From Candidatus Omnitrophota bacterium (GTDB taxonomy: Bacteria; Omnitrophota; Gorgyraeia; Gygaellales; Profunditerraquicolaceae): DNA of 64,000 bases. Below the pieces are notes generated by a model. It did not search any database. It worked only from the letters and a program-made list of their open reading frames with translations, and was not told the DNA's origin. Position 1 is the stretch's first letter, and each line of letters opens with the position of its first letter. The stretch covers positions 64,726 through 128,725 of the forward strand of contig CAWDSS010000017.1 in NCBI GenBank assembly GCA_963805065.1, in the 5' to 3' direction. Below are positions 8,929-45,815 of the stretch, piece by piece. Position numbers and translations under genes: made by a program.

Positions 8929-8954
8929 CTGTTTTTTTATATATACTTCACTAA

Positions 8955-9032: not shown

Positions 9033-9038
9033 CCGACT

Positions 9039-9470: not shown

Positions 9471-9669
9471 CTTTTCTTAAGGCAATTTTATAATCGGCAT
9501 GTTCCTGCTGGACAACAACGTGGCCTTCCCTGGCAAGCCAACCCAAACTCATCAGCACATTGTCGCGAGGCTTATCTATGCCCCTGACTAGGGTAGATAA
9601 GGTAACTTCCCCGTGTTGATCAAGAAAATGCCATATATCACCCGCTACTATCCCAATTTCTGTTATCAT
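9463..9669 (-). CDS. Small winged-helix protein (DUF2582-like)
   Basis: 68 aa. IGIVAGDIWHFLDQHGEVTLSTL...LMSLGWLAREGHV matches my memory of the DUF2582 wHTH family. It overlaps the PilX-like gene by 8 nt. Confidence 0.55.
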   Translation of the reverse strand: MITEIGIVAGDIWHFLDQHGEVTLSTLVRGIDKPRDNVLMSLGWLAREGHVVVQQEHADYKIALRKDV

Positions 9670-9730
9670 TTTCTTCCTCCGGTTTTTTCCTTAATGTCTT
9701 CATTATAAAGTTTAAATTCTTGAAGGTCAA

Positions 9731-28689: not shown

Positions 28690-29958
28690 TTATATTTTAG
28701 CCAGAAACCTGGGTATTATTTCGTTTTTAACCAGATCCTCGCGGGTTTCTCTCTTCCTGATTACAAACGCCCTGTTTTTGACAACCATTACCTCTTGGGC
28801 TTTTAGCCTGGAATTATAATTACTGGACATACTAAAGCCATATGCCCCGGAACTCATAATAGCCAAGTAATCGCCTTCTTTGACTTTAGGCAGCTTTCTG
28901 TCTTTAGCAAAGAAATCAGCGCTTTCGCAAATTGGACCTACTATATCTACTCTCTCGATGCTCTTTGCTCGATGCTCGATGCTCGTAGGCAAAATCTGAT
29001 GGTATGCATCGTATAAAGCAGGCCTGATTAAATCATTCATCCCTGCGTCTACGATTATAAATTCCTTTTTAGGAGTCCTTTTAATGTATAAAACTTTTGT
29101 CACGAGTATGCCGGCATTGCCAATAATAAACCTTCCGGGCTCCATGATAATGCGTAGTCTTGTTTCTTTAAGTAACGCTAAGACTCTTTGAGCGAATTTC
29201 TGGGCAGTTTGAGGCGTTTCTTTATTATAAACTATTCCTAATCCTCCTCCGATATTAAGATATTCCAGAGTAATGCCCTTGTGCCTTAATTTGCCTATGA
29301 AATCCACTATTTTATTAATAGCGCAAATGTAGGGCGCCCCTTCAGTTATCTGGGAACCTATATGTATATGCAGCCCCGAAATCTTTAAATTAAAAAACCT
29401 ATCGCGCATTAACAGGATATCGTATGCACTTTTAAAATCTATCCCGAATTTATTGGTAAGTTTTCCCGTCGTGATATATTTGTGGGTTTTTGGCTCTACA
29501 TCCGGATTGATGCGTATTGCTACTCTTACAATCTTGTTTAGTTTCCTGGCTATGCGGTTAATGTTTTCTAATTCAGGCAGTGATTCTACGTTGAAAAACA
29601 GGATTCCCCTTCTTATCGCTTCTTCAATTTCTTTGTCTGTTTTCCCTACTGAAGCATAAACGATTCTGCTTGCAGGACAGCCTGCTTTAATTGCGCAAAA
29701 GAGCTCTCCCCCTGAAACAACATCCAGGCCTGCGCCTCTTTGAACCAGCGTCCTAAGGATAGCTAAATTAGAATTGGCTTTAACCGAATAGCAAATTAAA
29801 GGTTTAATCTGCCTGAAGGCATCTGTTAGCTTGTTAAAGTGGTCGATAATAGTCTGATAGCTATAGATATAAAGAGGCGTCCCGAATTCTTTAGCCAGTG
29901 CCTCTACTTTTACCTGTTCACAAAAAAGTTGATTATTCCTATATTTAAATTCGTGCAT
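28690..29958 (-). CDS. lysA: Diaminopimelate decarboxylase
   Basis: CYSVKANSNLAIL (PLP Lys), NIGGGLGI, GPICESADFF. Confidence 0.95.
   Translation of the reverse strand: MHEFKYRNNQLFCEQVKVEALAKEFGTPLYIYSYQTIIDHFNKLTDAFRQIKPLICYSVKANSNLAILRTLVQRGAGLDVVSGGELFCAIKAGCPASRIVYASVGKTDKEIEEAIRRGILFFNVESLPELENINRIARKLNKIVRVAIRINPDVEPKTHKYITTGKLTNKFGIDFKSAYDILLMRDRFFNLKISGLHIHIGSQITEGAPYICAINKIVDFIGKLRHKGITLEYLNIGGGLGIVYNKETPQTAQKFAQRVLALLKETRLRIIMEPGRFIIGNAGILVTKVLYIKRTPKKEFIIVDAGMNDLIRPALYDAYHQILPTSIEHRAKSIERVDIVGPICESADFFAKDRKLPKVKEGDYLAIMSSGAYGFSMSSNYNSRLKAQEVMVVKNRAFVIRKRETREDLVKNEIIPRFLAKI
28954..28988. repeat. Tandem heptamers CTCGATG inside lysA
   Basis: ctcgatg ctctttg ctcgatg ctcgatg ctcgtag. 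Encodes PTSIEHRAKSIER. Confidence 0.8.
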
Positions 29959-31330
29959 ATAATTTCTTATCCCAATTGTTTATTTGTTTTTTTACTAATC
30001 CCGGGCTAGTCCCTCCATAGGATTTTTTCAAGTTAACCGACGCCTTAACATTAAGAATGCCTTTGACTTTCGAGTCCAATTTGGGGCAATATTTCTTAAG
30101 TTCATTGGGGCTTAGGCTGGAAATATTTTTGCCTTTGTCCAAACACTCCTTGACTATTTTACCAACGATGTCGTGTGAATCCCTGTAAGATACGCCTTTC
30201 TTAATTAAATATTCCACTATATCTACAGAGAACAATGATTCATCAGTTAGCTTCGCCGCTATGGCTTCTTTCTCAATTACGATATTGCCAAATAAGGCAA
30301 TGGATATCTCTAAAATATCCTTTAAGGTGTCTACTGAATCAAAAAGCGGCGGCTTATCCAGCTGCAAATCCCTGTTGTAAGACATGGGCAATCCTTTCAT
30401 TAATATAAGCACATTGTAAAGGTCCCCGTGTATTTTTCCGACAGAGCCTCTGATGAGCTCTAAGACATCTGGATTTTTCTTATGCGGCATAATGCTTGAA
30501 CCGGTGCAAAAAGAAAAATCTATGTCAATAAAATTAAATTCTTTGGTTGACCACAGAATAAGGTCTTCTGCTATCCTGGACAAATGAACTGCCAGAATCG
30601 ATAAATCTGCCAATAGTTCAATGATAAAATCTCTGTCGCTTACGCCGTCAATGCTGTTAGCTGTAAGATTTTTGAAGCCCAGTTCTTTTTTTACAAAGTC
30701 TCTGTCAATGGGTAAACCTGTTCCGGAAAGCGCGCAACTGCCCAAAGGCATATAATCTGTTCTTTTCTTTGCATCAAGTAATCTTTCTCTGTCTCTCTCC
30801 AAACCTTCAATATATGCAAGTAAATGATGGGCCAATAGTACACATTGCGCTATCTGTAAATGCGTATAGCCTGGTATTATTACTTTTGAATTGGTTTTGG
30901 CAAATTTTAAAATTGATTTTTGCAGTAATGAAATTGACTCTTCTAAATCATCTATTTCATCCTTAATATACATCTTGACATCCAATGCTATCTGGTCGTT
31001 TCTGGAACGAGCAGTATGCAATTTGAACGCCACCTTACCAACTTTTTTCAAAAGTACGGCTTGAACATTGGAATGGATGTCTTCTGCTTTAGGGTCAAAT
31101 TTAAATTTCCCCTTGTTTAGGTCTTTTAAAATTAAATCAAGTCCCTTTACAATAAGCGCGGCATCTTTGACCGGGATAATGCCCTGCTTTCCCAGCATTT
31201 TGGCATGGGCAATACTGCCTAAAACATCATACTTGGCCAATCGCTTATCAAAAGAAATACTGGAAGTAAATTTGTCCGTCAAGAGATTAGTTTTCTTGGG
31301 AAATCTTGTTCCCCACAGTTTCTTCGTCAT
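29945..31330 (-). CDS. argH: Argininosuccinate lyase
   Basis: Fumarate-lyase signature SSIMPHKKNPDVLEL. 461 aa. Confidence 0.95.
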   Translation of the reverse strand: MTKKLWGTRFPKKTNLLTDKFTSSISFDKRLAKYDVLGSIAHAKMLGKQGIIPVKDAALIVKGLDLILKDLNKGKFKFDPKAEDIHSNVQAVLLKKVGKVAFKLHTARSRNDQIALDVKMYIKDEIDDLEESISLLQKSILKFAKTNSKVIIPGYTHLQIAQCVLLAHHLLAYIEGLERDRERLLDAKKRTDYMPLGSCALSGTGLPIDRDFVKKELGFKNLTANSIDGVSDRDFIIELLADLSILAVHLSRIAEDLILWSTKEFNFIDIDFSFCTGSSIMPHKKNPDVLELIRGSVGKIHGDLYNVLILMKGLPMSYNRDLQLDKPPLFDSVDTLKDILEISIALFGNIVIEKEAIAAKLTDESLFSVDIVEYLIKKGVSYRDSHDIVGKIVKECLDKGKNISSLSPNELKKYCPKLDSKVKGILNVKASVNLKKSYGGTSPGLVKKQINNWDKKLYARI

Positions 31331-31372
31331 TTTTTCCTCTTTTAGTTTTGCGTTCTATCCAGAATGAACCTT

Positions 31373-31428
31373 AGTTTTGCGTTTTTCCTTTTGCGTTTTA
31401 CTTTTACCTTTTTACTTTTACCTTTTAT
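31373..31428. repeat. Tandem A/T-rich heptamers at the argG/argH junction
   Basis: agttttg cgttttt ccttttg cgtttta cttttac cttttta cttttac cttttat. TTAGTTTTGCGTT also occurs at 31342..31354. Includes the argG stop. Confidence 0.75.
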
Positions 31429-32599
31429 AAGGCATTCCCCATATCTTTATAAACCCTTCAGCTAATTTCTGGTCGAATCTATCCTCTTTGCCGTAGGTAC
31501 TTAACTCCTTCTTATAAAGAGAACGACTGGATTTTCTGGCTACCGCAACACAGCTTCCTTTAAATAATTTTAACTTTATTGATCCGGTTAGGTGCTTCTG
31601 CGTCGAATCAACGAATTTATCCAAAGCCTCTTTTAAAGGAGAAAACCAGAGGCCAAAATAAACCATCTCTGAATATTTAAGCGCCACAATCTCTTTAAAA
31701 TGCGCCAGCTCCCTGTCCAGCACAAGGCTTTCCAGTTCTTTATGCGCATTATAAAGAATAGTGGCTGCCGGAGCTTCGTAAATTTCCCGGGATTTAATCC
31801 CCACCAATCTATTTTCCACTAAATCCACCCTACCGACTCCGTAAAGCCCTCCTATTTCATTCAGATGGGTGATTAAAGTCTTTAATTTATAGCTCTTCCC
31901 ATCTATCTTTTGGGGAATACCCTTCTCAAAATAAATTTCAATATACTTTGGATACGAAGACTGTCCGGTTGGGCTTTTGGTAATTAAATATGCGTCTTCG
32001 GGCGGCTCTTGTTCCAAATTCTCCAAAACCCCGGCCTCAATACTTATTCCCCATATATTTCTATCGATGCTGTATGGCTTTTTCTTGGTTACATCTATCG
32101 GTATATTGTACATCTTCGCATATTCAATTTCTTCGTCTCTTGACTTAAATTCCCAAACTCTCACAGGCGCGATAATTTCCAGTTTCGGATTCAAAATACC
32201 GACGCTGACCTCAAATCTTACCTGGTCATTGCCTTTACCTGTACAGCCATGAGCAACCGTATCTGCTTTTTCTTTATGGGCTATTTCGACCAGGTACTTA
32301 GCAATCAAAGGCCTTCCTAAAGCTGTAGCAAGTAAATATTTTCCTTCGTATATCGCATCTGCCTTTAATGAAGGCATCACATAATCCTCTAGAAACTCAT
32401 CCTGCAGGTTCTTTATATACACTTTTGATGCGCCTGCAGCAAGGGCTCGTGCTTCAATAGCCTCAAAATCCTCACCTTCTCCCAAGCCCTGGCCTAAGTC
32501 CGCAACAAAACAAATAACCTCATATTCTCTTTCTTTAAGCCATCTGACTATGCAGGAAGTATCTAGGCCTCCTGAATATGCCAATACAACTTTTTTCAT
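31418..32599 (-). CDS. argG: Argininosuccinate synthase
   Basis: AYSGGLDTS ATP-binding motif, 393 aa, SD GGAGGA. Confidence 0.95.
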   Translation of the reverse strand: MKKVVLAYSGGLDTSCIVRWLKEREYEVICFVADLGQGLGEGEDFEAIEARALAAGASKVYIKNLQDEFLEDYVMPSLKADAIYEGKYLLATALGRPLIAKYLVEIAHKEKADTVAHGCTGKGNDQVRFEVSVGILNPKLEIIAPVRVWEFKSRDEEIEYAKMYNIPIDVTKKKPYSIDRNIWGISIEAGVLENLEQEPPEDAYLITKSPTGQSSYPKYIEIYFEKGIPQKIDGKSYKLKTLITHLNEIGGLYGVGRVDLVENRLVGIKSREIYEAPAATILYNAHKELESLVLDRELAHFKEIVALKYSEMVYFGLWFSPLKEALDKFVDSTQKHLTGSIKLKLFKGSCVAVARKSSRSLYKKELSTYGKEDRFDQKLAEGFIKIWGMPYKR

Positions 32600-32613
32600 T
32601 TATTCCTCCAAAA

Positions 32614-33003
32614 CTAAGAACAGCCTCCCGAGCTAGGTTGGTTATCACCAATGTTCATATGGCTGACTCTACCGTCCCCTCCGTTTCTTGTTGCCTGGCC
32701 ACAACCGGTAGAAAAAACCGCGTAATTCCAATCAATATTGCCCGTAGATGGTAGTGAAAGCTTTAGATGGGTATTAATACTTCCAATATTAGTATCGCTC
32801 CCGGAACTAGGATAATATCCATTCGAATCCAAAGAATAAGCCTTTTCTGCTACTTGGATACTCTTAAGATTAGCATTGGCTTCACTATTAGCTACATTCT
32901 CTTTAGCAGACATCAAATAACCTATACTCAGAGTTGCAAGAACGCCCATAATTACAACCGTAATCAACAGCTCCTGCATTGTAAAACCCTTTTTGCCAAG
33001 CAT
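32614..33003 (-). CDS. Type IV pilin-like protein embedded in the arg operon
   Basis: MLGKKG|FTMQELLITVVIMGVLATLSIG has a prepilin leader, Gly-1 and Glu+5. A C-terminal Cys pair (GCGQ...GGCS) resembles a pilin D-region. Strong SD AAGGAGAGG. Confidence 0.75.
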   Translation of the reverse strand: MLGKKGFTMQELLITVVIMGVLATLSIGYLMSAKENVANSEANANLKSIQVAEKAYSLDSNGYYPSSGSDTNIGSINTHLKLSLPSTGNIDWNYAVFSTGCGQATRNGGDGRVSHMNIGDNQPSSGGCS

Positions 33004-33026
33004 AAGCCTCTCCTTTACAAAAGATT

Positions 33027-33941
33027 TTATTTCAATAGCTTAATAAGTATTGCTTTTTGCACATGCAGTCTATTTTCTGCCTGATCAAAAACCACGGAAT
33101 GCCTACTCTCCATAACCTCATCAGTTATCTCCTGGCCCCTATGTGCAGGCAAGCAATGCATAATCAAGGCGTTATCCTTAGCAAAGCTTACCAATTTGCT
33201 GTTAACCTGGAATCTCTTGAACACTTTTTCGCGTTTAGCCGCTTCCTCCTCCTGGCCCATACTTGCCCAAACATCCGTGTAAATTACATCTGATCCTTTT
33301 ACTGCCATTACAGGATCATTAAATAAATTTAGGGAGGCCTTTGTGTGTTTGGCAATAGCCTTTGCTTCTTTTACAACTGATTTTTGAGGCTCATATTCCT
33401 TAGGAGTTGCCACATTCATATTTACGCCGCATTTAGCACAAGCATAAAGCAAAGAATTACAGACATTATTTCCATCGCCCACATAACTTAAGGTTAACCC
33501 TTTCAATTTTTTGAATTTCTCTCTTATGGTGTATAAATCCGCTAACGCCTGACAGGGGTGCTCAAAATCGGATAAGCCGTTAATTACTGGCTTATCCGAA
33601 TATTTCGCCAACTCTGAAACATTCTTATGTTCAAATGTCCTTAAGACTACAACATCTGCATATCTTGAAAGCGTTTTAGCCACATCCTCGATGGATTCTC
33701 TAACTCCTAAATTTATTTCATTAGGAGCCAGGTACAAGGAATTTCCACCCAACTGATACATACCCACTTGAAAAGAAACCCTGGTTCTATTAGAAGGCTT
33801 CTGGAAAATTAATACCAGTGACTTACCAGACAAGGCCCTGTTAAACTTTGCCTTATTTTTCTTAAGCTGGTCAGTTAAATCAAATATATTTTCTATTTCT
33901 GCAGTAGTTAAATCTTTAATAGATATGAGGTTTTTTTTCAT
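33027..33941 (-). CDS. argF: Ornithine carbamoyltransferase
   Basis: FQKPSNRTRVSF and HCLPAHRGQE motifs. Confidence 0.95.
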   Translation of the reverse strand: MKKNLISIKDLTTAEIENIFDLTDQLKKNKAKFNRALSGKSLVLIFQKPSNRTRVSFQVGMYQLGGNSLYLAPNEINLGVRESIEDVAKTLSRYADVVVLRTFEHKNVSELAKYSDKPVINGLSDFEHPCQALADLYTIREKFKKLKGLTLSYVGDGNNVCNSLLYACAKCGVNMNVATPKEYEPQKSVVKEAKAIAKHTKASLNLFNDPVMAVKGSDVIYTDVWASMGQEEEAAKREKVFKRFQVNSKLVSFAKDNALIMHCLPAHRGQEITDEVMESRHSVVFDQAENRLHVQKAILIKLLK

Positions 33942-33943
33942 TT

Positions 33944-34006
33944 TGCTTTCAGCTCTCAGCCTTCAGCTTTCAGCTGATGACTGACAGCTGATGACTGAAA
34001 GCTAAA
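33944..34006. repeat. Nine tandem heptamers (AGCTTTC... then AGCTGAT/GACTGAA) across the argD stop / argF start
   Basis: tgctttc agctctc agccttc agctttc agctgat gactgac agctgat gactgaa agctaaa. The two halves are partly inverse-complementary. Encodes the argD C-terminus FQSSAVSHQLKAEG*. Confidence 0.8.
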
Positions 34007-35167
34007 CACGCTGTCCAATATGTTAATGGTCTTATCAATCTCTTTTTTGGTTATATTCAATGCGGGCATTAACCGAAGCACCTTATCGTGCGTGCAATTA
34101 ATCAATAAACCCAAAGTCAAGCATTTTTCCACTACAGGCTTTCCTTCGGTATCTAATTCAATGCCGGCCATTAATCCTATTCCTCTTACTTCTCTGATAA
34201 TTTTGTATTTATTTTTTAATGCGTTCAATTTCATAAAAAGATACTCTCCTGACTTCTGCGCGTTGTTAAGAAGCTTCTCTTTTTGTATCGCAGTCAATAC
34301 TGCAAGCGCTGCCTTGCATATTACAGGGCCGCCGCCGAATGTGGAAGCATGCATACCAGGCCCTAGTGTATCTGAAATCTCATTTTTGGCTACCATTACA
34401 CCTATCGGTAATCCTCCTCCGAGGGCCTTAGCTAAGGTCATAATGTCCGGGGTTATCCCATAATGCTGGTAACAAAAGAATTTGCCTGTCCTGCCCACGC
34501 CTGTCTGGACTTCATCTACAATTAAAAGCAATTTTTTTTCATCGCAGATCTTCCTTAAAGATAAAACAAACTCTTTGCTTGCCACGTTTATGCCGCCTTC
34601 GCCCTGGATTAATTCCAGCATTATGGCTACGGTCTTGTCGGTTATTGCTTTTTTAACTTCCTCTATATCATTGAACTTAACCGTCTTAAAACCTTCTGGC
34701 AGGGGCTCAAAACCACTCTGATATTTTTTCTGTCCTGTTGCAGCCAGTGCAGCAAGGGTTCTGCCATGAAAAGAATTTTCAAAAGTTATAATTTCAAATC
34801 TTCCCTTGCCGAATTTACGGCTGAACTTTATTGCCGCCTCATTTGCCTCAGCTCCCGAATTACAAAAAAATACTTTACCGGGAAATGTCCGGTAAATTAT
34901 CTCCTTGGCCAATTTTGCCTGAGGTATGTGATAATAATTATTCGGTATAAATATAAGTTTGGAAATCTGGTCGCGTACTGCCTGCATAACCTTAGGATGG
35001 CAATGTCCTAAATTACCCACTCCCCAACCGGGGAAAAAATCCAGGTAAGCTTTTCCTTTAACATCCCAAAGTTTTGAGCCTTTCCCTTTAACAAATACCA
35101 GGGGAATCTTGGTATAGGTTGGCATTATATTTTCTTGATAACTTTGTAGGACTTCTTCTATTTTCAT
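33956..35167 (-). CDS. argD: Acetylornithine aminotransferase
   Basis: DEVQTGVGRTGK and TLAKALGGGLP (PLP Lys) motifs. Confidence 0.93.
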   Translation of the reverse strand: MKIEEVLQSYQENIMPTYTKIPLVFVKGKGSKLWDVKGKAYLDFFPGWGVGNLGHCHPKVMQAVRDQISKLIFIPNNYYHIPQAKLAKEIIYRTFPGKVFFCNSGAEANEAAIKFSRKFGKGRFEIITFENSFHGRTLAALAATGQKKYQSGFEPLPEGFKTVKFNDIEEVKKAITDKTVAIMLELIQGEGGINVASKEFVLSLRKICDEKKLLLIVDEVQTGVGRTGKFFCYQHYGITPDIMTLAKALGGGLPIGVMVAKNEISDTLGPGMHASTFGGGPVICKAALAVLTAIQKEKLLNNAQKSGEYLFMKLNALKNKYKIIREVRGIGLMAGIELDTEGKPVVEKCLTLGLLINCTHDKVLRLMPALNITKKEIDKTINILDSVFSFQSSAVSHQLKAEG

Positions 35168-35176
35168 TTTTAAAAT

Positions 35177-35234
35177 AAAGGGGACGTTTCTATTTTTCCT
35201 CTAAACTGGAGACGTTAAAAATAGAAACGTCCCC
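35177..35234 (-). terminator. 64-nt hairpin element, copy 2 (between argB and argD)
   Basis: Same arms as copy 1 (AAAGGGGACGTTTCTATTTTT / AAAAATAGAAACGTCCCC). The loop also contains GGAGACGTT, and the minus strand continues TTTATTTTAAAA-ATG(argD). Confidence 0.6.
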
Positions 35235-35244
35235 ATTTTTTCAC

Positions 35245-35279
35245 AGTTTTGCCTTTTTACTTTTACGTTTTGAGTTTAT
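35245..35279. repeat. Tandem A/T-rich heptamers at the argB stop
   Basis: agttttg ccttttt actttta cgttttg agtttat. Includes the argB stop at 35276. Confidence 0.65.
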
Positions 35280-36130
35280 TTTACTATCTCCGTTCCCACA
35301 CCCTGATCCGTGAATATTTCCAACAATAACCCGTGAGGAGTGCGCGCATCAATGATGTGTGTCTTCTTTACTCCCTTAGCCAGCGCTTCAATGCAAGCAG
35401 CTACCTTCGGGATCATGCCTTGCTGAATAATATTATTTTCTGCCAAGCCTTTTGCTTCTTCTGTGCTCAGAGTAGAAATAAAAGAATGGGGATCATCGGC
35501 ATTTCTCATAATCCCCTTAACGTTGGTTAACAAAACCAGTTTTTCCGCTTCTAATCCGGCAGCAATGCTTGCTGCAACTTCATCCGCATTAACATTGTAC
35601 GTTTTCTTGTCTTTACCCCTGCCCATAGGTAAAATTACCACGATTTTATCTTTTCTCAATTCATCTACCAAGGGTGCGGTATCTATCTGGGTAATATGCC
35701 CCACCAAACCCAAATCTACATTAGCCTTCTTTTTCTCAACCTGGATTATGTTTTTATCTTTACCGTTTATACCTGCGGCTTTTGCTCCTAACTCATCAAT
35801 TTCTTTTACTATTAAAGTATTCAGGTTTTGCAGTTCTTCCTCCACTAGATTAAGCGTCTCCTCATCAGTTACGCGCATGCCGTTTACAAACTCGGTTTTT
35901 TTGCCTGAGGCCCGCATTCGGTCGCTGATATTAGGCCCGCCGCCATGCACCAGTACCGGGCGTAAACCCATGAAATTTAAAAACACGATATCCTCCAATA
36001 CGCCCCTCCTTATCTTCTCTTCTCCTAAAATACTTCCGCCATATTTTATGACAATTGTTTTCTTATGGAATTTTTTAATATAGGGAAGCGCCTCAATAAG
36101 GACATCTGCTTTTCTAATTGCTTCTTCCAT
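35276..36130 (-). CDS. argB: Acetylglutamate kinase
   Basis: VIKYGGS and LVHGGGP motifs. 284 aa. Confidence 0.95.
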   Translation of the reverse strand: MEEAIRKADVLIEALPYIKKFHKKTIVIKYGGSILGEEKIRRGVLEDIVFLNFMGLRPVLVHGGGPNISDRMRASGKKTEFVNGMRVTDEETLNLVEEELQNLNTLIVKEIDELGAKAAGINGKDKNIIQVEKKKANVDLGLVGHITQIDTAPLVDELRKDKIVVILPMGRGKDKKTYNVNADEVAASIAAGLEAEKLVLLTNVKGIMRNADDPHSFISTLSTEEAKGLAENNIIQQGMIPKVAACIEALAKGVKKTHIIDARTPHGLLLEIFTDQGVGTEIVK

Positions 36131-36141
36131 GTTTTCCTTCC

Positions 36142-37281
36142 TTAATTGTATGCTGCATTTATTCTTATGTATTCGGGTGTTAAATCCGAGGTGTAAATTA
36201 TGCTGGAAAATTTACCTTTACCGATTAATACATCCACAGATATATCTTTTTTATTCAAGGGGCTTAGCTTAATTTTCATGTCTTTTTCTCTTACTGCTAT
36301 GCCGCTTGCGCCAACGCCAGCGACAATTCTTCCGAAATTCGGGTTCTCGCCGTACATCGCAGTCTTAAATAAATTCGAATTGGCGATAAATAATGCTGCT
36401 GTTAAAGCATCTTCTTTGCTCCTTGCGCCCCTTACCTTAATCTGAATGAATTTTGAAGCACCTTCTGCATCCCGGACAATCATTTTGGTAAGTTCATCGC
36501 ATACTATGCCTAATGCTTTTACAAACGCATTGAATCCTTTTTTTGCACTGATCACAGGATTACCGCTTGCGCCGTTTGCCAAAAGCATCACAGTGTCATT
36601 TGTGCTCATACAGCCATCAACGGTTATGCAATTGAAAGAACCAGATACGCAGATGTTTAACGATTTATTAAGTGCCTGTTGCGCAATATTAGCGTCTGTA
36701 AAAATAAATACCAGCATGGTTGCCATATTGGGAGCGATCATCCCTGCGCCTTTAGCAATTCCGCAAACCGTAACAATTTTACCGCCAATATTAAACTTTA
36801 CCGTAACCTGTTTGGGGAAAATATCGGTTGTCATAATAGAGAACTTCGCTTTATCTATTCCTTTTGCCGATAAACCTGTTATTAGTTTAGGTATGACCTT
36901 ATTTATAAGGCCTACCTGAAGCCGTTTACCGATAATTCCCGTAGAAGCCACTAGCACACTTTCTTTCTTAATACCCAAAGCAAAAGCCAGGGCCTTTGTA
37001 GTTGATTCTGCATCTCTTTCTCCCTGTTCACCGGTAAAGCAATTCGCATTTCCGCTGTTTACAACTATTGCCCTAACGCCTTTGTTGCTCTTAAGATGCT
37101 GCTTACATACTTTTATAGGAGCAGCCTGTATTTTATTTGTGGTAAATAAACAACTTGCCTTTGCCGAGATATCCGAATAAAACAAGGCAAGGTCCAATTT
37201 TCTGGATTTTTTAATGCCACACCATATGCCATTAGCCTTAAAATGCTTAGGCAGAATTGCTTTCTTATACAACTTTAACAT
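36142..37281 (-). CDS. argJ: Bifunctional ornithine acetyltransferase / N-acetylglutamate synthase
   Basis: Autoprocessing-site region MATMLVFIFTDA. 379 aa. Confidence 0.92.
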   Translation of the reverse strand: MLKLYKKAILPKHFKANGIWCGIKKSRKLDLALFYSDISAKASCLFTTNKIQAAPIKVCKQHLKSNKGVRAIVVNSGNANCFTGEQGERDAESTTKALAFALGIKKESVLVASTGIIGKRLQVGLINKVIPKLITGLSAKGIDKAKFSIMTTDIFPKQVTVKFNIGGKIVTVCGIAKGAGMIAPNMATMLVFIFTDANIAQQALNKSLNICVSGSFNCITVDGCMSTNDTVMLLANGASGNPVISAKKGFNAFVKALGIVCDELTKMIVRDAEGASKFIQIKVRGARSKEDALTAALFIANSNLFKTAMYGENPNFGRIVAGVGASGIAVREKDMKIKLSPLNKKDISVDVLIGKGKFSSIIYTSDLTPEYIRINAAYN

Positions 37282-38291
37282 AAAGATGCTTTCTCAGGAA
37301 AGCCGTACATGATGTTCATATTCTGCACTGCCTGCCCTGCTGCGCCTTTCAATAAATTATCAATTGCCGCAATGATTATTATTTTGTCTACCTCGTCTTT
37401 AATCGCTATATCGCAAAAATTAGTCATTGCCACGTCTTTAATTCTGGGGAAATCCTGTCCTTCTCTAACCCTGATAAATGGCTCTTTCTTATAGAACTTC
37501 TTATACAAATCCACTAAATTCTGCCCGCCGGATTTCCTGATTTTCTTGGCATATATCGTAGCCAAAATACCCCTGCTTAAAGGAAGCAGGTGCGGAACAA
37601 ACGTTACCGCGATATTCTTACCGGCTAGCTTTGATAACTCCTGATTAATTTCTGGAGAATGCTGATGCACGTTTACTTTATAGGCTTTAAAATCTTCATT
37701 AACTTCCGAAAACAAGAAACTTTCTGCTAATTTTCTTCCTGCGCCGGTAACGCCGGATTTGGCATCAATGACTATTGATTCTAAATCAATTTTATTAAGA
37801 GCCACTAAAGGCGCTAACGCCAAAATGCTTACCGTCGGGTAGCACCCGGGGTTAGCAATAAGCTTTGCGGTCTTAATCTTGGCACGATACAACTCGGGCA
37901 ATCCGTAAACCGCAGCAGACAAATGCGGCTTGTCTTTATGCTTGGCATTATAAAATTTTTCATAAACTTGCGTATTCTCAAACCTGTAATCCGCGCTTAA
38001 GTCTATAACTTTTTTACCGGTCTTTAAAAGTTTTGGCACTAACTCCATGGAAACTGTGTGTGGTAGCGCCAGAAATACCAAATCGCAACTGGAAGCAATT
38101 TCTTTTAGATCGGGTTCTTTGCAGATAAGGCTTATTCTGCCTTTAAACTTAGGGAATATCTCTGAAATCACTTTAGGTTGATCAATCTTTGCAGAGATGT
38201 TTGTTATCCGTACCTGGGGGTGATCTAGAAGTAAACTGATTAACTCTTCTCCTGCATAACCTGTTGCACCTACTATACCTACGTTTATCAT
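37275..38291 (-). CDS. argC: N-acetyl-gamma-glutamyl-phosphate reductase
   Basis: VGATGYAGEELI and NPGCYPT motifs. Start taken at ATG 38291 (MINVGIVG, SD GGAG), not the ORF-track start 38327. Confidence 0.93.
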   Translation of the reverse strand: MINVGIVGATGYAGEELISLLLDHPQVRITNISAKIDQPKVISEIFPKFKGRISLICKEPDLKEIASSCDLVFLALPHTVSMELVPKLLKTGKKVIDLSADYRFENTQVYEKFYNAKHKDKPHLSAAVYGLPELYRAKIKTAKLIANPGCYPTVSILALAPLVALNKIDLESIVIDAKSGVTGAGRKLAESFLFSEVNEDFKAYKVNVHQHSPEINQELSKLAGKNIAVTFVPHLLPLSRGILATIYAKKIRKSGGQNLVDLYKKFYKKEPFIRVREGQDFPRIKDVAMTNFCDIAIKDEVDKIIIIAAIDNLLKGAAGQAVQNMNIMYGFPEKASLC

Positions 38292-38309
38292 AATAGCTCC
38301 TTTAATGAG

Positions 38310-38348
38310 CACATGACTTACGAACACGAAGTGTGAGTAAGTTATGTC
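38310..38348. repeat. AACTTACG-type palindromic element, copy B (argC 5' leader)
   Basis: CACATGACTTAC-gaACACgaaGTGTga-GTAAGTTATGTC, 19 nt upstream of the argC ATG and downstream of the predicted promoter. Confidence 0.65.
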
Positions 38349-38365: not shown

Positions 38366-38394
38366 ATCATAAATCAAATTTCCCTCGACGTCAA
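38366..38394 (-). promoter_or_regulatory. Sigma70-like promoter of the arg operon
   Basis: Minus strand reads TTGACG (38394..38389), a 17-nt spacer, then TATGAT (38371..38366). About 70 nt upstream of argC. Confidence 0.5.
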
Positions 38395-40313: not shown

Positions 40314-41323
40314 TGCGCTATCTGAATAGCATTAGTTGCCGCGCCCTTACGCAAATTATCTGCTACCACCCATAACCAAAGCCCGTTCTTGCTGAAACAA
40401 TCCCTGCGTATCCTGCCGACAAAGACTTCGTCTTTGCCTTCTGCATCTTTAGGCATGGGGTAGAGATTTTTGACAGGATCATCAATTACGACTATCCCTG
40501 GAGATCCGGAAAGCAAGGTTTTTACTTTCTGCGGGTCAATAGGCTTGGCTGTCTCAATATACACTGATTCCGAATGCCCCGTCCTTACGGGAACTCTTAC
40601 AGTAGTTGCGGAAATCTTGATTAAATCATCGTGCATAATTTTATGCGTTTCGCGGACCAGCTTCCATTCTTCACTGGTATAATCACACTCTGCAAAACCG
40701 CCTATATGCGGAAATACATTGAACGCCAGTTGTTGCGGCATTGCCTTTTCTTTCACATTAACATGCAGATTAATGTAACCACCTGAGGAAATTTCCTGTA
40801 CTTCTGCATTTAGCTGTTCAACAGCGCCCTTGCCAGCTCCTGAAGACGCCTGCAAAGTGGTAACGATTATCCTTTTAATCCCAACTTTTTTATAAATTGG
40901 CCACAATGCCACGACCATCTGTATGGTAGAGCAATTGGGATTCGCAATTATGCCTCTGTGTTTTTTTACATCCCGGGCATTTACCTCAGGTACTACCAGC
41001 GGAACATCTGCCTTCAGGCGAAAATCAGCGCCATTATCAATAACCACAGCCCCTCTTACAATTGCGTCTTGCGCATAAGTAACTGCTGCCCCTTTTTCAC
41101 CCTCGGTTCCTGCAAATAAAACTATATCAATACCGTCGAAACCTTGGGGCGATATGGCTTTAACCTGGTAGGTTTGCCCGTCTACTTCAATTTCCCTTTC
41201 GCTGCGGGCAAAAACGCGTAATTCATCAACCGGAAAATTACGCTGTTTTAAGACACGCAACATCTCAACACCCACTACCCCCACCCCTACCACCGCCACA
41301 TTATACTTTGATTTATTTTTCAT
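40289..41323 (-). CDS. asd: Aspartate-semialdehyde dehydrogenase
   Basis: IANPNCSTIQMV active-site motif. 344 aa. Confidence 0.95.
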   Translation of the reverse strand: MKNKSKYNVAVVGVGVVGVEMLRVLKQRNFPVDELRVFARSEREIEVDGQTYQVKAISPQGFDGIDIVLFAGTEGEKGAAVTYAQDAIVRGAVVIDNGADFRLKADVPLVVPEVNARDVKKHRGIIANPNCSTIQMVVALWPIYKKVGIKRIIVTTLQASSGAGKGAVEQLNAEVQEISSGGYINLHVNVKEKAMPQQLAFNVFPHIGGFAECDYTSEEWKLVRETHKIMHDDLIKISATTVRVPVRTGHSESVYIETAKPIDPQKVKTLLSGSPGIVVIDDPVKNLYPMPKDAEGKDEVFVGRIRRDCFSKNGLWLWVVADNLRKGAATNAIQIAQCLISSSK

Positions 41324-41997
41324 TTCACGATTACCTCAAACTCATCTTTATTAACGCTATTCAACATCATGTCCTTTATCTGTGTTGCATTAAAACGGTG
41401 CGTAGAAATATCCAACCCATAATCGGCCCAAAGCCCTTGCGACCCAAATTTAATCATATCTAAGCCCAATGAAAACAAATCCTTTTGATCCCCCAGTGCA
41501 CCCCTGCGGTAAAGCGCATCTATCTTGGAAAACAAATTATCCTTGTCTGATTCGGTTGAAAAAATAAAAAAGCACCATGTACCCTTACTGTCAATGTTTT
41601 CCAAAATCTTCGGTAATTTGATGAGAAGATTGTCTTTAAGCATCAACAAATGTATCTCTTCTCCCAGGCGTTTTAACAACCTGCTTTCTCCCGGCTCGGT
41701 ACGCGCTAAAGTAAAATATGCAGAGCTTAAAGCTAGCGTCTCTTTTATTTTTTCCATGCTGGCACCACCTGCGCCTGGCTCATGCCAGGTCAAAGACCTG
41801 AATAATAGATACGTTACCTTGCCCTCTTCTTTAAAGTTGTTTACCAATTTTGTAAAATAGCCTTTATTATTAAACGCGAATAAATCAAATGTCCCTGATA
41901 CTAATAATTGCATTTCCCCGAATGAAACGTGGAAAATCGTTACTCCTGAAAACCAGGCTTTAACTTCTTTAATTACGATTTCCTGTTTTTCTTTCAT
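41320..41997 (-). CDS. Hypothetical protein (225 aa), translationally coupled to asd
   Basis: Long ORF with an ATG start. Its stop overlaps the asd start (ATGA). I recognise no motif. Confidence 0.55.
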   Translation of the reverse strand: MKEKQEIVIKEVKAWFSGVTIFHVSFGEMQLLVSGTFDLFAFNNKGYFTKLVNNFKEEGKVTYLLFRSLTWHEPGAGGASMEKIKETLALSSAYFTLARTEPGESRLLKRLGEEIHLLMLKDNLLIKLPKILENIDSKGTWCFFIFSTESDKDNLFSKIDALYRRGALGDQKDLFSLGLDMIKFGSQGLWADYGLDISTHRFNATQIKDMMLNSVNKDEFEVIVK

Positions 41998-42002
41998 AGG
42001 GA

Positions 42003-43054
42003 TTACAAATTCTTCACGACCTCGTCTCCTACTTCTTCGGTGGAATATCCCATCTTTCCTGCTGCTAGAGATTTCAATTTCTCGTTAACGATCTTAATCA
42101 CCGCATTCTCTACTGATTTACCGGCATCGAGTTCGCCTAAATTCTCCAGCAACATACCCAATGCGCAAATAGCAGCTAAGGGATTGATAACATTTTTACC
42201 GGTGTATTTGGGAGCGCTTCCGCCGATAGGCTCAAACATGGAAACGCCGGAAGGATTAATATTTCCTCCTGCGGCAATGCCCATTCCACCCTGAATCATC
42301 GCTCCTAAATCCGTAATAATATCGCCGAACATATTATCGGTAACAATCACATCAAACCATTCCGGATTCTTAACAAACCACATGGTAGTAGCATCGACAT
42401 GCGCGTAATCAGTGGTTACATCCGGGTATTCCTTCGCTACCTCATTAAACGTCCTCTCCCACAAATCCCAGGCAAATGTCAGGACATTGGTTTTTCCGCA
42501 AAACGTAAGTTTTTTCTTTCTCCTGCGTTTACGCGTAAATTCAAATGCATAGCGGATACAGCGCTCAACACCAATTCGCGTATTATAAGAAATCTGCATT
42601 GCTACTTCGTCTTTAGTGCCTTTATTCTTAAATTCACCCATGCCTTTATAAAGGCCTTCGGAATTCTCCCGCACCACTACGAAATCAATATCCTCTGGTC
42701 TCTTTATCTTTCAGGGGACAAAAGGCAGCGTTATAAAGTTTGACCGGCCGAAGATTAATATACTGATCCAGGGAAAACCTTAAGTTTTAACAGAATCCCG
42801 GTCTCAAGAATCCCCGGCTTTACGTCCGGATGGCCTATTGCTCCCAGATAAATCGCCGAATACTTTTTTAGCTCCGCTATATCGCTATCATCCAGGGTCT
42901 TACCTGTTTTTAGAAAACGCTCGCCTCCAAAATCAAATATCTTGGTTTCGTATTCAAATTTAAATTTTTTTCCGGCCGCCGTTAATACTTTAAGCCCCTC
43001 CCTGATTACCTCAGGGCCGGTGCCGTCTCCCGGTATAACAGCTATCCTAAACAT
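42003..43054 (-). pseudogene. leuB: 3-isopropylmalate dehydrogenase, interrupted by two +1 frameshifts
   Basis: The N-terminal part (42755..43054, IAVIPGDGTGPEV) and the C-terminal part (42003..42677, VRENSEGLY...GSAPKYTGKNVINPLA) are in frames offset by 2. The third frame between them reads [26 protein letters not shown] without a stop. Confidence 0.75.
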
Positions 43055-43068
43055 GGAATCCTTTCCTT

Positions 43069-43329
43069 TTAGATTTCTTCCACTAATTTTATGGTTGATT
43101 TGTTTAAAATTATCGCGTTGTTCTTCTTAAGCATCTCCGTAATAAGTTTGAACGATTTTATTTCTTTAAGATTACTGAATTCGGCATTTGTAATGGCTAT
43201 AAAACTTTCCCTGGTATCATTCAGGAAGTCGATTATCCTTTCCCCGGGGTTGATGTGCACAAAGCCCTCCACTAATAAATTATCATGGCAAATAACGCTG
43301 ACTTTACGCTTTTCTTTTTCTACTCTCAT
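43069..43329 (-). CDS. Hypothetical small protein (86 aa)
   Basis: ATG start with SD GGAAGGAGAG inside the leuD end. No recognised motif. Confidence 0.5.
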   Translation of the reverse strand: MRVEKEKRKVSVICHDNLLVEGFVHINPGERIIDFLNDTRESFIAITNAEFSNLKEIKSFKLITEMLKKNNAIILNKSTIKLVEEI

Positions 43330-43330
43330 C

Positions 43331-43825
43331 TTACTCGCTCTCCTTCCTTAACTTTATCCAGTTCATCAGCCCGCCTTGTTTTACAATTTCCTGGAGGAAT
43401 GCGGGAAAGCAAGCGGTGTTATAAGTTTTATTCTTGCTTAGGTTTCTTATTATACCATTGGATAAGTCTATTTCAAGCGAATCACCGTCAGAAATATCCT
43501 CGGTATTTCTTAATTCCAAAAACGGCAAACCTATATTTATGGCGTTTCTAAAGAATATCCCGGCAAAACTCCTGGCAATAACCGCCGAGATTCCGCAACC
43601 CTTGATTGCTAAAGGCGCATGTTCCCGCGATGAGCCGCATCCGAAGTTTTTACCGGCAACAATGATATCCTGCGGGCTAACCTTACTTACAAAATCAGGG
43701 CGTATTGATTCCAAACAGTGCCTTCCCAGTTCTTTGGCGTCAGTGGAAACCAAATATTTTGCGGCAATAATGTCATCGGTGTTTATATCATCTCCCAGTT
43801 TATGAACTTTACCCTTAATAATCAT
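43331..43825 (-). CDS. leuD: 3-isopropylmalate dehydratase small subunit
   Basis: GKNFGCGSSREHA motif. 164 aa (short archaeal-type form). Confidence 0.92.
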   Translation of the reverse strand: MIIKGKVHKLGDDINTDDIIAAKYLVSTDAKELGRHCLESIRPDFVSKVSPQDIIVAGKNFGCGSSREHAPLAIKGCGISAVIARSFAGIFFRNAINIGLPFLELRNTEDISDGDSLEIDLSNGIIRNLSKNKTYNTACFPAFLQEIVKQGGLMNWIKLRKESE

Positions 43826-43826
43826 T

Positions 43827-44417
43827 TTAGTTACCGCCCTGATTTGATAATCCTTGTAAGCTCGGCATAATCCCGCTTACATCCTGGAATTGGACTCCTT
43901 CAGGCAGGCTAAATAGCCCATCTTCCAAATCTGCATTTATCTCAATGTTGCTATAATGGGTAGTCGAACCCGGACTTTCTACCTTCAAGGGAAAATCCAA
44001 ATCTTTCATAACCCACATTGTTACGGGTTTCCCGCCCTTTGAACAACGGTATATCCCGCAAGGCTGCCCATCCACCTGATCTTCGCCTATGTATTGGCAA
44101 TCATTCTTATAGTCTCCGACAGACGGAACCTGTCCTTTTGCCCCGGAAACGTCCATCTTCATCGCCATATTCTGGGCTGGTATGTACATATAGGCGTTTT
44201 GAGCGCTGACAATTGTGATTGTGTTCATTCCAGACACATTCATTTCAATACGGCTCTTATCGCCTTTTATAAAAAGCTTTCCTTCGGCTTTACCTGTTGC
44301 AGAAGAGTCAGTGAGCATATCGCATTTAAGAGAAGAAAAGCTAGCGGCAAATGATATTAAAATGAAACTAAGTAGACTTACAACTGCCAAAAATACAAAC
44401 AAAAATATTTTTTTCAT
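43827..44417 (-). CDS. Secreted LolA-fold-like / DUF4412-like protein
   Basis: Signal peptide MKKIFLFVFLAVVSLLSFILISFA. The pattern ...KSRIEMNVSGMNTITIVSAQNAYMYIPAQNMAMKMD... recalls LolA-like beta-barrel families. I use ATG 44417 because the ORF-track start 44438 is a GTG. Confidence 0.4.
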   Translation of the reverse strand: MKKIFLFVFLAVVSLLSFILISFAASFSSLKCDMLTDSSATGKAEGKLFIKGDKSRIEMNVSGMNTITIVSAQNAYMYIPAQNMAMKMDVSGAKGQVPSVGDYKNDCQYIGEDQVDGQPCGIYRCSKGGKPVTMWVMKDLDFPLKVESPGSTTHYSNIEINADLEDGLFSLPEGVQFQDVSGIMPSLQGLSNQGGN

Positions 44418-44434
44418 TCTCTGCCCCAATTTAA

Positions 44435-45694
44435 TCACATTACCGCTTCAGGATGAGTAATGCTCCCCCTTATAGCAGATGCCGCAGCTACTGCAGGGCC
44501 GGATAAGTAAACAAATGACTTAGGATGGCCCATTCTGCCGATAAAATTACGGTTAGTGGTAGCCAGGCAGCTTTCTCCTTCCGTAATTATTCCCATATGG
44601 CCGCCTAAACACGGTCCGCAGGTCGGCGTTGAGAATACCCCTCCTGCCTTAACGAATATCTCAGCCAATCCTTCTTTTACCGCCTGTAAATAAATTTTTT
44701 GCGTAGCAGGAATCACAATCAACCTCAATCCTGCCTTGGCTTTTCTACCTTTTAAAATCTTGGCTGCAATCCTTAAATCAGAAATCCTGCCATTGGTGCA
44801 AGAGCCGATTACTACCTGATCAAGCGAAACCCGGCTTAATTTGCTGGCAGGCTTTACATTGCTGGGTAAACTAGGGGAAGCTACTAAAGGCTCTATTTTT
44901 GTCACATCATATTCATAAATTTTTGCGTAAACAGCGTCGCTATCGCTCTTATAAACCTTGAATTTGCGGGGAGCCGGATTTACATATTTTAAAGTAGTCT
45001 CATCTGCCCCAATAATACCCGCCCTTGCCCCTGCTTCAATAGCCATATTTGACATGGTGAACCTATCATCCATTCCTAAATTGCTGATTACTGGCCCGCT
45101 AAACTCCATGGCGTTATATAATGCGCCGTCTACGCCGATGTCGCCTATGGTAAATAAAATAAGGTCCTTGCCTCCTACCCATTTGCCTAGCTTTCCTTTA
45201 TATATAAACTTGATAGAGGCCGGTACTTTAAACCAGCATTTTCCGTCTACAAAAACCCTGGCTAAATCTGTTGAACCTACCCCTGTGGCATAACTTCCCA
45301 TTGCTCCGTATGTGCAGGTATGCGAATCAGCGCCTATAACCAAATCGCCCGGAAGGACTAACTTTTGCTCAGGCAGAAGCGCATGTTCAATGCCCATACA
45401 GCCGACTTCAAAATAATTCTTTATCCTCTGCTCTCTTGCAAAGTCAGCCAGGATCTTACACTGATTAGCGCTTCTTAAATCTTTTGCCGGCGCAAAATGA
45501 TCGGGCACCAGGACAATTTTATTTTTATTAAAAACTTTTTTGAATCCTGCTTTCTTAAACTCTTCAATTGCCATGGGCGCAGTAATATCATTACCCAGGG
45601 CAATATCGATGTTTGCCTCGATAAACTCACCCGGTTTTATGTCTTTAGCCTTAGTATGAGCTAATAGTATCTTTTCAGCAATAGTGTGCGCCAT
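44435..45694 (-). CDS. leuC: 3-isopropylmalate dehydratase large subunit
   Basis: IGADSHTCTYGA, GSCTNGR and TPTCGPCLGG (Fe-S Cys ligands). Start taken at ATG 45694 (MAHTIAEKIL). The upstream 20 ORF-track codons lie in heptamer repeats. Confidence 0.92.
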   Translation of the reverse strand: MAHTIAEKILLAHTKAKDIKPGEFIEANIDIALGNDITAPMAIEEFKKAGFKKVFNKNKIVLVPDHFAPAKDLRSANQCKILADFAREQRIKNYFEVGCMGIEHALLPEQKLVLPGDLVIGADSHTCTYGAMGSYATGVGSTDLARVFVDGKCWFKVPASIKFIYKGKLGKWVGGKDLILFTIGDIGVDGALYNAMEFSGPVISNLGMDDRFTMSNMAIEAGARAGIIGADETTLKYVNPAPRKFKVYKSDSDAVYAKIYEYDVTKIEPLVASPSLPSNVKPASKLSRVSLDQVVIGSCTNGRISDLRIAAKILKGRKAKAGLRLIVIPATQKIYLQAVKEGLAEIFVKAGGVFSTPTCGPCLGGHMGIITEGESCLATTNRNFIGRMGHPKSFVYLSGPAVAAASAIRGSITHPEAVM

Positions 45695-45700
45695 ATTGGA

Positions 45701-45815
45701 AAGGTAAAAGTTAAAAGCAAAAAGGTAAAAGTTAGAAGTAAAAGTCAAAAGCATAAAAATACTTTTAATTTTTTACTTGTACTTTTTACTTTTGGCTTTT
45801 TACTTTTTACTTAAC
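45701..45815. repeat. ~115-bp imperfect palindrome built from A/T-rich heptamers (TAAAAGN / NCTTTTA)
   Basis: taaaagt taaaagc aaaaagg taaaagt tagaagt ... actttta atttttt acttgta cttttta cttttgg cttttta cttttta. Lies between the fabF stop and the leuC start. Confidence 0.8.

Follow-up and report, generated by a model that had tools for sequence, protein, structure and literature searches.

In Proteobacteria, pilus genes can abut co-oriented housekeeping genes: pilMNOPQ (or hofMNOPQ) is followed by aroK-aroB, and the ppdA-ppdB-ygdB-ppdC genes of Escherichia coli lie beside recC. There, a block of pilus genes borders the other unit. Here we describe a 64,000-nucleotide stretch (the window) of contig CAWDSS010000017.1, positions 64,726 to 128,725, from assembly GCA_963805065.1 of a Candidatus Omnitrophota bacterium, where a single pilin gene instead lies between the consecutive enzyme genes argF and argG, in the middle of a cluster for arginine biosynthesis. 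No other case of a lone pilin gene within an arg operon is known to us. The gene product is a known kind of protein, a type IV pilin of an Omnitrophota-wide family that we refer to as PIL, in an unusual position that is conserved within one clade. Taken together, the evidence favors, with a probability of roughly 0.7, a scenario in which a PIL gene of the pilus operon moved into the argF-argG interval in one Omnitrophota subclade, was kept there, is probably co-transcribed with the arg genes and still serves the pilus machinery.

Type IVa pili and, in some Omnitrophota, predicted conductive pilins are among the traits of the genome survey by Seymour et al. (2023), which does not mention arg-linked pilins (PMC10066038). 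Nor are they mentioned in a 2026 preprint on 176 complete genomes of Omnitrophota (bioRxiv 10.64898/2026.06.07.730766), and a literature search linking pilin with arginine biosynthesis, argF or argG found no paper. The first-pass annotation of this stretch knew of no precedent for a pilin inside an arg operon; this holds for the literature searched, but the arrangement turns out to be common to an Omnitrophota subclade.

The prepilin gene and its family

The gene (coordinates in Table 1) encodes a protein of 129 amino acids, whose leader MLGKKG stands before FTMQE (MLGKKG/FTMQELLITVVIMGVLATLSIGYLM). The basic leader, Gly-1, Phe+1 and Glu+5 make up a class III, or prepilin, signal, and cleavage after the six-residue leader would yield a mature pilin of 123 amino acids. 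A hydrophobic stretch follows the cleavage motif, in keeping with the pattern of the pilin superfamily, in which some 20 hydrophobic residues make up the N-terminal half of a long alpha-1 helix ahead of a globular alpha/beta head. The protein also has the marks of a type IVa pilin, namely a leader of fewer than 10 residues, a mature length within about 120-160 residues and a C-terminal cysteine pair, Cys101 and Cys128, which are its sole cysteines and may form a disulfide. Cognate assembly machinery (PilM/N, PilO, secretin, T2SSE ATPase and T2SSF) is encoded in the same genome at 1484-8671.

Among domain models, the NCBIfam entry for the prepilin cleavage/methylation domain (TIGR02532) matches with 25.3 bits, above its cut-off of 16.3, and Pfam N_methyl (PF07963) scores 19.9, marginally below its cut-off of 21.2. 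The protein stays below the cut-offs of GspG (TIGR01710; 39 bits against 88.85, with only residues 5-67 aligned), of the GspH/FimU type (TIGR01708; 17.5 against 80), of ComGC (NF040999; 31.4 against 75) and of Myxococcus-type PilA (NF041775; 33.5 against 400). A profile search against the PDB aligned residues 2-66 with Geobacter PilA-N (1.7e-15), Myxococcus PilA (8e-14) and GspG (1e-10), the alignments being confined to the approximately 60 N-terminal residues. The AlphaFold2 model, built from 103 sequences with a predicted local distance difference test score of 86.8, consists of a 52-residue N-terminal helix (residues 9-60), a second helix (73-80) and three strands (92-97, 102-106 and 113-116) that form a small beta-sheet, resembling the "lollipop" shape of pilins.

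This open reading frame (ORF) is a genuine, intact gene of the type IV pilin superfamily and not a chance ORF, because its homologues reach E=1e-40 and share the motifs NLKLSLP and NWNY as well as the cysteine pair. The first-pass annotation had proposed a prepilin gene at this position, with a KKG/FTMQE signal, a hydrophobic alpha-1 helix and a C-terminal cysteine pair; it named no strand, and put the gene at distances of 23 nt from argF and 14 nt from argG. The ORF on the minus strand with its leader, the TIGR02532 match and the conserved homologues bear out the gene, the translation and the structural model agree with the described protein features, and the distances from the argF stop codon to the pilin and from the pilin to the argG ATG are exact. 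A foreign origin was considered on the basis of composition and dismissed, as the G+C content (0.415) and the G+C content at third codon positions (0.354) are both similar to those of the neighboring genes. The idea of a conductive e-pilin was likewise set aside, given that aromatic residues make up only 6.5% of the mature protein and the head domain is of full length.

A search with the window pilin as a single sequence returned only four homologues. The profile built from these four found 809 proteins at E<=1e-3, and the named matches are Omnitrophota proteins called prepilin, GspG, PulG or "type II secretion system protein". We coined the label PIL for this Omnitrophota pilin family, whose members have about 130 (approximately 125-140) amino acids. 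The columns E11 (Glu5 of the mature protein), N77, L80 and W92 are invariant and a further 16 are nearly so; the window pilin carries all of these residues and belongs to the family. Other hallmarks include N..LKLSLP, the W/Y of NWNY, an ..A.R..GD..R segment and the C-terminal cysteine, with Cys128 being at least 90% conserved and the first cysteine forming part of the family consensus. Pfam recognizes 99 of 103 PIL members through N_methyl only, the head domain having no Pfam family.

To locate the family in its genomic setting, the pilus and arg proteins of the window were mapped by tblastn onto 80 metagenome loci retrieved with the PIL profile (loci are given by L numbers). The approximately 45 loci with readable flanks show the order secretin-pilB-pilC-pilin1-PIL-PilV-like minor pilin, with one to four copies of pilin1 and one to three of PIL; the "minor" gene is weakly PilV/GspI-like, and the gene that follows it resembles larger minor pilins. 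The operon copies P0025 and P0005 are 44-48% identical to the window pilin, P0025 (48%) coming from L168, a locus with the canonical order pilin1-PIL-minor. The closest complete clusters by PilC (74-77% identical), L172, L173 and L174, which were read at their pilus loci only, all have this order as well. PIL occurs in two or three tandem copies in L100, L094, L104 and L157. Occasional copies (L103, L118 and L158) stand apart from the pilin row. In L168, a DDE transposase gene lies on the opposite strand at 8445-9689, directly after the operon PIL and before the minor pilin.

Its place in these clusters suggests that PIL could be either a second structural subunit of the filament or an adaptor joining the tip of minor pilins to the major pilin. 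GspH/FimU, a minor pilin, connects the major subunit with the tip complex, and PIL occupies the corresponding position because it sits between the major pilin and the PilV/GspI-like minor pilin. Terminator-like hairpins are found in 8 of 71 pilin1-PIL spacers and in 12 of 59 PIL-minor spacers, at positions that vary among genomes. These counts were also considered as a way of calling PIL a major or a minor pilin, for which they are not decisive.

Conservation and expression context of argF-PIL-argG

The arrangement argF-PIL-argG, or the visible part of it, recurs in at least nine other lineages (L002, L004, L005, L009, L086, L087, L088, L095 and L166/L167). These include loci encoding the arg-site proteins P0003 (L002) and P0002 (L004) and a metagenome-assembled genome (MAG) of the GTDB from Lac Pavin (L009). 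L166/L167 repeat the whole order rplM-rpsI-argCJBDF-PIL-argGH-lysA-dapF-dapA-dapB. Beyond these lineages, a locus identical to that of the window (L001) is present in ERR10755942. All arg-site pilin ORFs are intact and keep both the signal motif and the family motifs. The first-pass annotation had named two observations that would speak against it, an ORF absent or disrupted in all relatives and not expressed, or a separate transcription unit, and the intact pilin in these lineages contradicts the first. In most loci the spacers measure 11-32 nt upstream and 13-20 nt downstream of the pilin. In L005 (166-878), two tandem PIL genes, 35 nt apart, follow argF, as expected if the arg site is the resident PIL locus.

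Comparison of the coding sequences indicates that the arg-site pilin is kept by purifying selection. Pairwise ratios of nonsynonymous to synonymous substitution (dN/dS) among the arg pilins range from 0.10 to 0.37, with the single exception of L005-L166 (0.57); dS is mostly saturated, and the least saturated informative pair, L086-L087, has a dS of 0.74 and an omega of 0.23. Conservation by codon position follows the order 2 > 1 > 3. The arg pilins are 43-78% identical to one another and the argG proteins of the arg clade 82-91% identical to the window argG, indicating that the pilin evolves much faster than its arg neighbors, as is usual for pilins exposed at the surface.

Among species-representative genomes, those with the nearest argF genes (58-74% identity) are all Candidatus Omnitrophota MAGs. 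A pilin is absent from the argF-argG spacer, here 41-133 nt long, in the Omnitrophota loci L006, L007, L008, L010, L011 and L019, and from every non-Omnitrophota locus examined in which argF and argG are adjacent. G+C-rich inverted repeats (GGGACTGTCCCC…GGGGACTGTCCC) are present in the 108-133-nt argF-argG spacers of L006 (2570-2677), L007 (5910-6042) and L008 (5943-6056). Because pilin-less relatives carry these hairpin repeats, the argF-argG junction seems to be an insertion-tolerant hotspot for hairpins.

Further hairpins were found at pilin loci. Shortly before the pilin leader, L009 (4480-4560) has a perfect hairpin, CCCCGTTAGAAAA-TTC-TTTTCTAACGGGG, with a 3' arm whose sequence recurs in the leader-coding "…LTG/Y" segment. 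A similar hairpin (CCCCGTTAGAT…ATCTAACGGGG) in L172 (8320-8372) overlaps with the minor-pilin leader. Judged by their location at the starts of pilin genes, both could be translational or attenuation elements. In addition, L004 (355-450) has, between argF and its arg pilin, a repeat of about 80 nt with two hairpins (…GATAACTCTAGGCGATTT…GGTATGGRAAAGTGTTTTA…ACTTTCCTGTACCAT), which provides the final eight codons of argF. The repeat is found again in L171 (7350-7427), a locus from another sample, directly after pilC at the contig end. Its recurrence may reflect an element tied to pilin loci, comparable to repetitive extragenic palindromes or miniature inverted-repeat transposable elements. This repeat is absent from the window even when three mismatches are allowed, and a mobile element was rejected as the explanation for the arg-site pilin.

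In the direction of transcription, the window cluster reads argC, argJ, argB, argD, argF, PIL, argG, argH, lysA, dapF, dapA, dapB. The pilin has the genomic marks of a member of the arg operon, including the same strand, short spacers, no signals in between and a conserved order, and co-transcription with the arg genes appears plausible from this layout. Neither pilin spacer contains a promoter-like or terminator-like match, no terminator-like site exists on the minus strand between 34874 and 29000, and promoter-like matches over the region occur at the level of shuffled sequence (28 found, 26.6 expected), in keeping with the earlier remark that no promoter or terminator is visible. The best promoter match of the region, a candidate operon promoter, lies 39 nt upstream of argC, inside the 293-nt gap after rpsI. 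The Shine-Dalgarno sequence of the pilin has a duplex energy of -8.8 kcal/mol with an assumed anti-Shine-Dalgarno sequence, which places it joint sixth to seventh among 57 window genes; the claim that it is the strongest in the neighborhood does not hold, since the GGAGG of argG reaches -9.3 kcal/mol. Searches for structured RNA with Rfam at E<=1 gave only two chance-level matches, both elsewhere, and the segment 32560-33060 has a minimum free energy z-score of +0.72. The genes called in the window are all on the minus strand and form a very long, tightly packed co-directional array, which blurs operon boundaries.

Origin of the arg-site copy and alternative explanations

The pilus cluster of the window lies 24-31 kb from the arg pilin, close to the approximately 30 kb given in the first-pass annotation. 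Its expected PIL slot, at about 785-885, holds a terminator-like hairpin instead of a PIL gene. A tblastn search with 89 PIL queries found no PIL gene or remnant in this cluster; the sole strong match in the 64 kb is 32617-32985, the arg-site gene itself, with weak N-terminal similarity to pilin1 elsewhere. As the slot is empty and the arg locus carries the sole PIL of the window, the arg pilin therefore appears to be the missing second pilin of the pilus cluster. Just upstream of pilM-pilN, a 143-aa ORF (9039-9470, minus strand) has a very weakly GspK-like N-terminus (E=0.013) and may be a minor pilin.

In a neighbor-joining tree of concatenated argD, argF and argG, the window, L087, L166, L088 and L095 form a clade with 96% bootstrap support, comprising, of the pilin-bearing loci, the five with argD, argF and argG. 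Within the inner group, the arg pilins are 55-78% identical to each other versus 43-52% to the best operon PIL, which supports a common origin of this group at the sequence level. The outer arg pilins remain equally close to operon PILs, with 60% identity between the arg pilin of L088 and the operon PIL of L168. This closeness fits a relocated orthologue and not a divergent, neo-functionalized paralogue.

On this basis, the following sequence of events can be proposed. In the ancestor of one Omnitrophota subclade, PIL would have moved from the pilus cluster into the short argF-argG spacer, with duplication followed by loss of the original copy leading to an equivalent outcome. Transcription would then probably start in the promoter region ahead of argC and take in the gene as part of the arg-lys polycistron, and the gene's own strong Shine-Dalgarno sequence would serve its translation. 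A prepilin peptidase encoded outside the window would cut the product after Gly6, and the PilB/PilC/PilMNO/secretin machinery, 24-31 kb distant, would insert it into the filament. The move would uncouple PIL expression from the pilin1 unit, which is followed by the terminator-like hairpin, and tie it to a housekeeping operon.

Several observations weigh against this relocation or against the proposed role. The relocation is viewed directly in one genome, that of the window, and the PIL search covers 64 kb, half of the 129-kb contig, so that another PIL copy may exist elsewhere. The pilus contigs of L169/L170, which represent the population of L166/L167 under two sample accessions, and of L171, from the sample of L002, end no more than 250 nt after pilC, short of a readable pilin region. 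These breaks (L169 7362-7476 and the ends of L170 and L171) fall after pilC or inside the major pilin gene in three assemblies from two arg-clade samples, which suggests strain-level hypervariability of the major pilin. In the arg tree, the pilin-bearing L009 groups with the pilin-less L006 and L007 in the next clade out (88%, internal order unsettled); one origin for all would thus be uncertain or call for secondary losses. The pilin tree, based on 127 alignment columns, places the ten arg-site pilins in one clade nested within the operon PILs, with a bootstrap of 4%, or 14% without L009; although its point estimate is monophyletic, a single origin was not accepted from this tree alone. L004 (103 nt upstream) and L088 (100 nt downstream) have long, hairpin-containing spacers that could mark terminators or separate units. 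Finally, no prepilin peptidase (Peptidase_A24) was found among the scanned ORFs of the window, and Foldseek returned no significant neighbor in the PDB, the top match being Clostridioides difficile PilA1 at E=1.2.

The arg-site gene might instead be an extra paralogue that landed in a permissive spacer, with one or more other PIL genes kept outside the window. PIL is often found in two to three tandem copies and sometimes outside the pilin row in other Omnitrophota, and our view is limited to half of the contig. Yet the canonical slot is empty with no detectable PIL remnant, the L005 tandem duplication took place at the arg site, and the arg copies retain all family-invariant residues, so we regard an extra paralogue as unlikely. 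It is similarly doubtful that PIL is an independent transcription unit, served by a promoter in the 3' end of argF or followed by a separate promoter for argG, in which case its position would carry no regulatory meaning. Weak sigma-70-like matches (9/12) do lie inside argF on the minus strand (33355-33326 and 33911-33883), the spacers of 66-103 nt next to the pilin in L004 and L088 contain stable hairpins of -26 to -31 kcal/mol, and the G+C-rich hairpins of the pilin-less L006-L008 hint that the junction may be a sub-operon boundary. However, the promoter matches do not exceed chance frequency, the spacers of most loci are too short for a promoter plus a terminator, and no terminator-like site lies near the pilin gene. 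An adaptive placement, with arginine or amino-acid control so that a host-dependent nanobacterium would step up attachment or uptake through its pili when starved, seems less probable still. It would be in line with the retention of the arrangement over the wide divergence of the arg pilins and with the proposal that Omnitrophota are host-dependent and that their type IV pili act in symbiosis or predation (PMC10066038), but no regulator, ARG box or attenuator was identified, and the conserved position is explained equally well by how hard it is to remove a gene from a tight operon. The order leuC-DUF4412-leuD in the same window further suggests passive tolerance in a compact, co-directional genome.

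Two other alternatives concern the protein. As a pseudopilin of the type II secretion system, PIL would serve a secretion piston and not an extended pilus. GspG is the top NCBIfam match (E=7.5e-10), and in source databases the family members go by GspG, PulG or "type II secretion system protein". The cluster contains a T2SSB-like, weakly GspC-like gene, and the gene series from pilin1 through PIL and the PilV/GspI-like gene to the larger minor pilin mimics gspG-H-I-J. Against this, the GspG match remains far under its cut-off and is restricted to the N-terminal helix, PilM, PilN and PilO are present in the cluster, and the platform protein is called PilC by JGI. Furthermore, a C-terminal cysteine pair is associated with type IVa pilins rather than with GspG. 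Seymour et al. also score type IVa pili as a trait in their Omnitrophota survey (PMC10066038), and on balance we consider the pseudopilin improbable. A decaying or spurious ORF could be suspected from the N_methyl score just under the gathering threshold and from the missing annotation name of this exact protein, but intact orthologues in at least nine lineages, low dN/dS, conserved motifs, a strong Shine-Dalgarno sequence and a confident predicted fold leave this idea with practically no weight.

Relocation of an operon PIL into the arg cluster would provide a clean, datable case of a structural pilus gene that left its operon and became fixed in an essential amino-acid operon of an uncultured, genome-reduced phylum. 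No new molecular mechanism emerges from it, but it suggests a connection of central metabolism with pilus expression that can be tested. Surveys of pilus operons in Omnitrophota, like annotation pipelines, would miss one conserved pilin in this subclade unless the arg cluster is inspected. A far-reaching version, to which we attach only a slim chance, is that host-dependent nanobacteria have wired a pilus subunit into the arg/lys polycistron, with amino-acid limitation directly tuning pilus composition or attachment to host or prey. If true, this would be a metabolism-to-appendage coupling that has not been described for type IV pili.

The remaining features of the window provide context. The leucine cluster (41320-45754, minus strand) likewise carries wedged genes from outside the pathway, including a secreted-looking DUF4412 protein. 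The surprise of an arg-operon pilin is lowered because other biosynthetic clusters of the window carry wedged unrelated genes. In the same cluster leuB is split, which represents a frameshift, a pseudogene or an assembly error. Elsewhere, two large adjacent ORFs on the minus strand (60253-62451 and 62487-63983) share an identical stretch of about 40 amino acids, KSLIDRPELMDVGLAIEETLAIMEHQLKMRNVSIFVNIQPNL, and are probably tandem paralogous sensor kinases.

Table 1 Features of the window, grouped by cluster
Feature	Position	Strand	Basis or remark
PIL prepilin gene	32614-33003	-	ATG-initiated ORF; translation; TIGR02532
Leader codons 1-6 (MLGKKG)	33003-32986	-	Predicted cleavage before Phe7
Cys101	32703-32701	-	Codon position
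Cys128	32622-32620	-	Codon position
argF-pilin spacer, 23 nt	33004-33026	-	Shine-Dalgarno sequence AAGGAGAGG at 33007-33015
Pilin-argG spacer, 14 nt	32600-32613	-	argG Shine-Dalgarno sequence GGAGG at 32605-32609
argF, ornithine carbamoyltransferase	33027-33941	-	Directly upstream; TIGR00658, 433 bits, cut-off 281; OTCace_N and OTCace
argG, argininosuccinate synthase	31418-32599	-	Directly downstream; NF001770, 581 bits, cut-off 334; Pfam
Co-directional biosynthetic cluster holding the pilin	28690-38327	-	Pfam assignments
argC	37275-38327	-	Pfam
argJ	36142-37281	-	Pfam
argB	35276-36130	-	Pfam
argD	33956-35167	-	Pfam
argH	29945-31330	-	Pfam
lysA	28690-29958	-	Pfam; cluster runs on into dapF, dapA, dapB
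Candidate operon promoter, sigma-70-like TTGACG-17-TATGAT	38366-38394	-	10/12, regional best; consensus match only
Type IV pilus/type II secretion-like cluster	402-8671	-	Pfam and NCBIfam
PilM-PilN fusion	7124-8671	-	Pfam/NCBIfam
PilO	6586-7110	-	Pfam/NCBIfam
T2SSB-like (weakly GspC-like)	6052-6579	-	Pfam/NCBIfam
Secretin	4440-6149	-	Pfam/NCBIfam
PilB/GspE ATPase with MshEN domain	2716-4437	-	Pfam/NCBIfam
PilC/GspF	1484-2716	-	Pfam/NCBIfam
pilin1, major-pilin-like	885-1352	-	Pfam/NCBIfam
Intrinsic-terminator-like hairpin	836-868	-	14-bp stem, then T7; between pilin1 and minor pilin
PilV-like minor pilin	402-785	-	Pfam/NCBIfam
Further pilin-like ORF	Cut by window start	-	Part of the pilus cluster
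leuC	44435-45754	-	
DUF4412 protein, secreted-looking, wedged	43827-44438	-	
leuD	43331-43825	-	
86-aa ORF	43069-43329	-	
leuB, N part	42755-43054	-	Split gene
leuB, C part	42003-42677	-	Split gene
225-aa ORF	41320-41997	-	No Pfam match; followed by asd
Response regulator with GAF and HD domains	58375-59877		Domain content; beside putative kinases

Comparison with described pilins

The closest described counterparts of the window pilin are the type IVa pilins PilA and PilE of Pseudomonas, Neisseria, Myxococcus and Thermus. They share with it a six-residue leader ending in Gly, Phe+1 and Glu+5, an alpha-1 helix of about 50 residues, an alpha-beta loop, an antiparallel sheet and a C-terminal cysteine pair, together with the PilB/PilC/PilMNO/secretin machinery. 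Unlike them, the window pilin has a head with no sequence or Foldseek match to solved pilins, is only 123 amino acids long in its mature form and is encoded inside an arg operon, away from the pilus genes. The Geobacter e-pilins (PilA-N) give the top PDB profile match, over the N-terminal 60 residues, a helix common to all pilins; these are truncated proteins of 60-70 amino acids, whereas the window pilin is of full length with a globular head.

A positional analogy connects PIL with GspH/FimU and the gspG-H-I-J order, as PIL follows the major pilin and precedes the PilV/GspI-like gene, and it keeps Glu+5. In contrast to GspH/FimU, PIL stands in tandem in some genomes, a pattern seen more typically among variants of structural subunits. 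Members of the same family are the operon PILs of other Omnitrophota, which have NLKLSLP, NWNY, the cysteine pair and a similar length in common with the window pilin, with identities between arg-site and operon copies of up to 60%. The difference between them is one of place: the operon PILs lie between the major-pilin-like gene or genes and the minor pilin, whereas the window copy lies between argF and argG.

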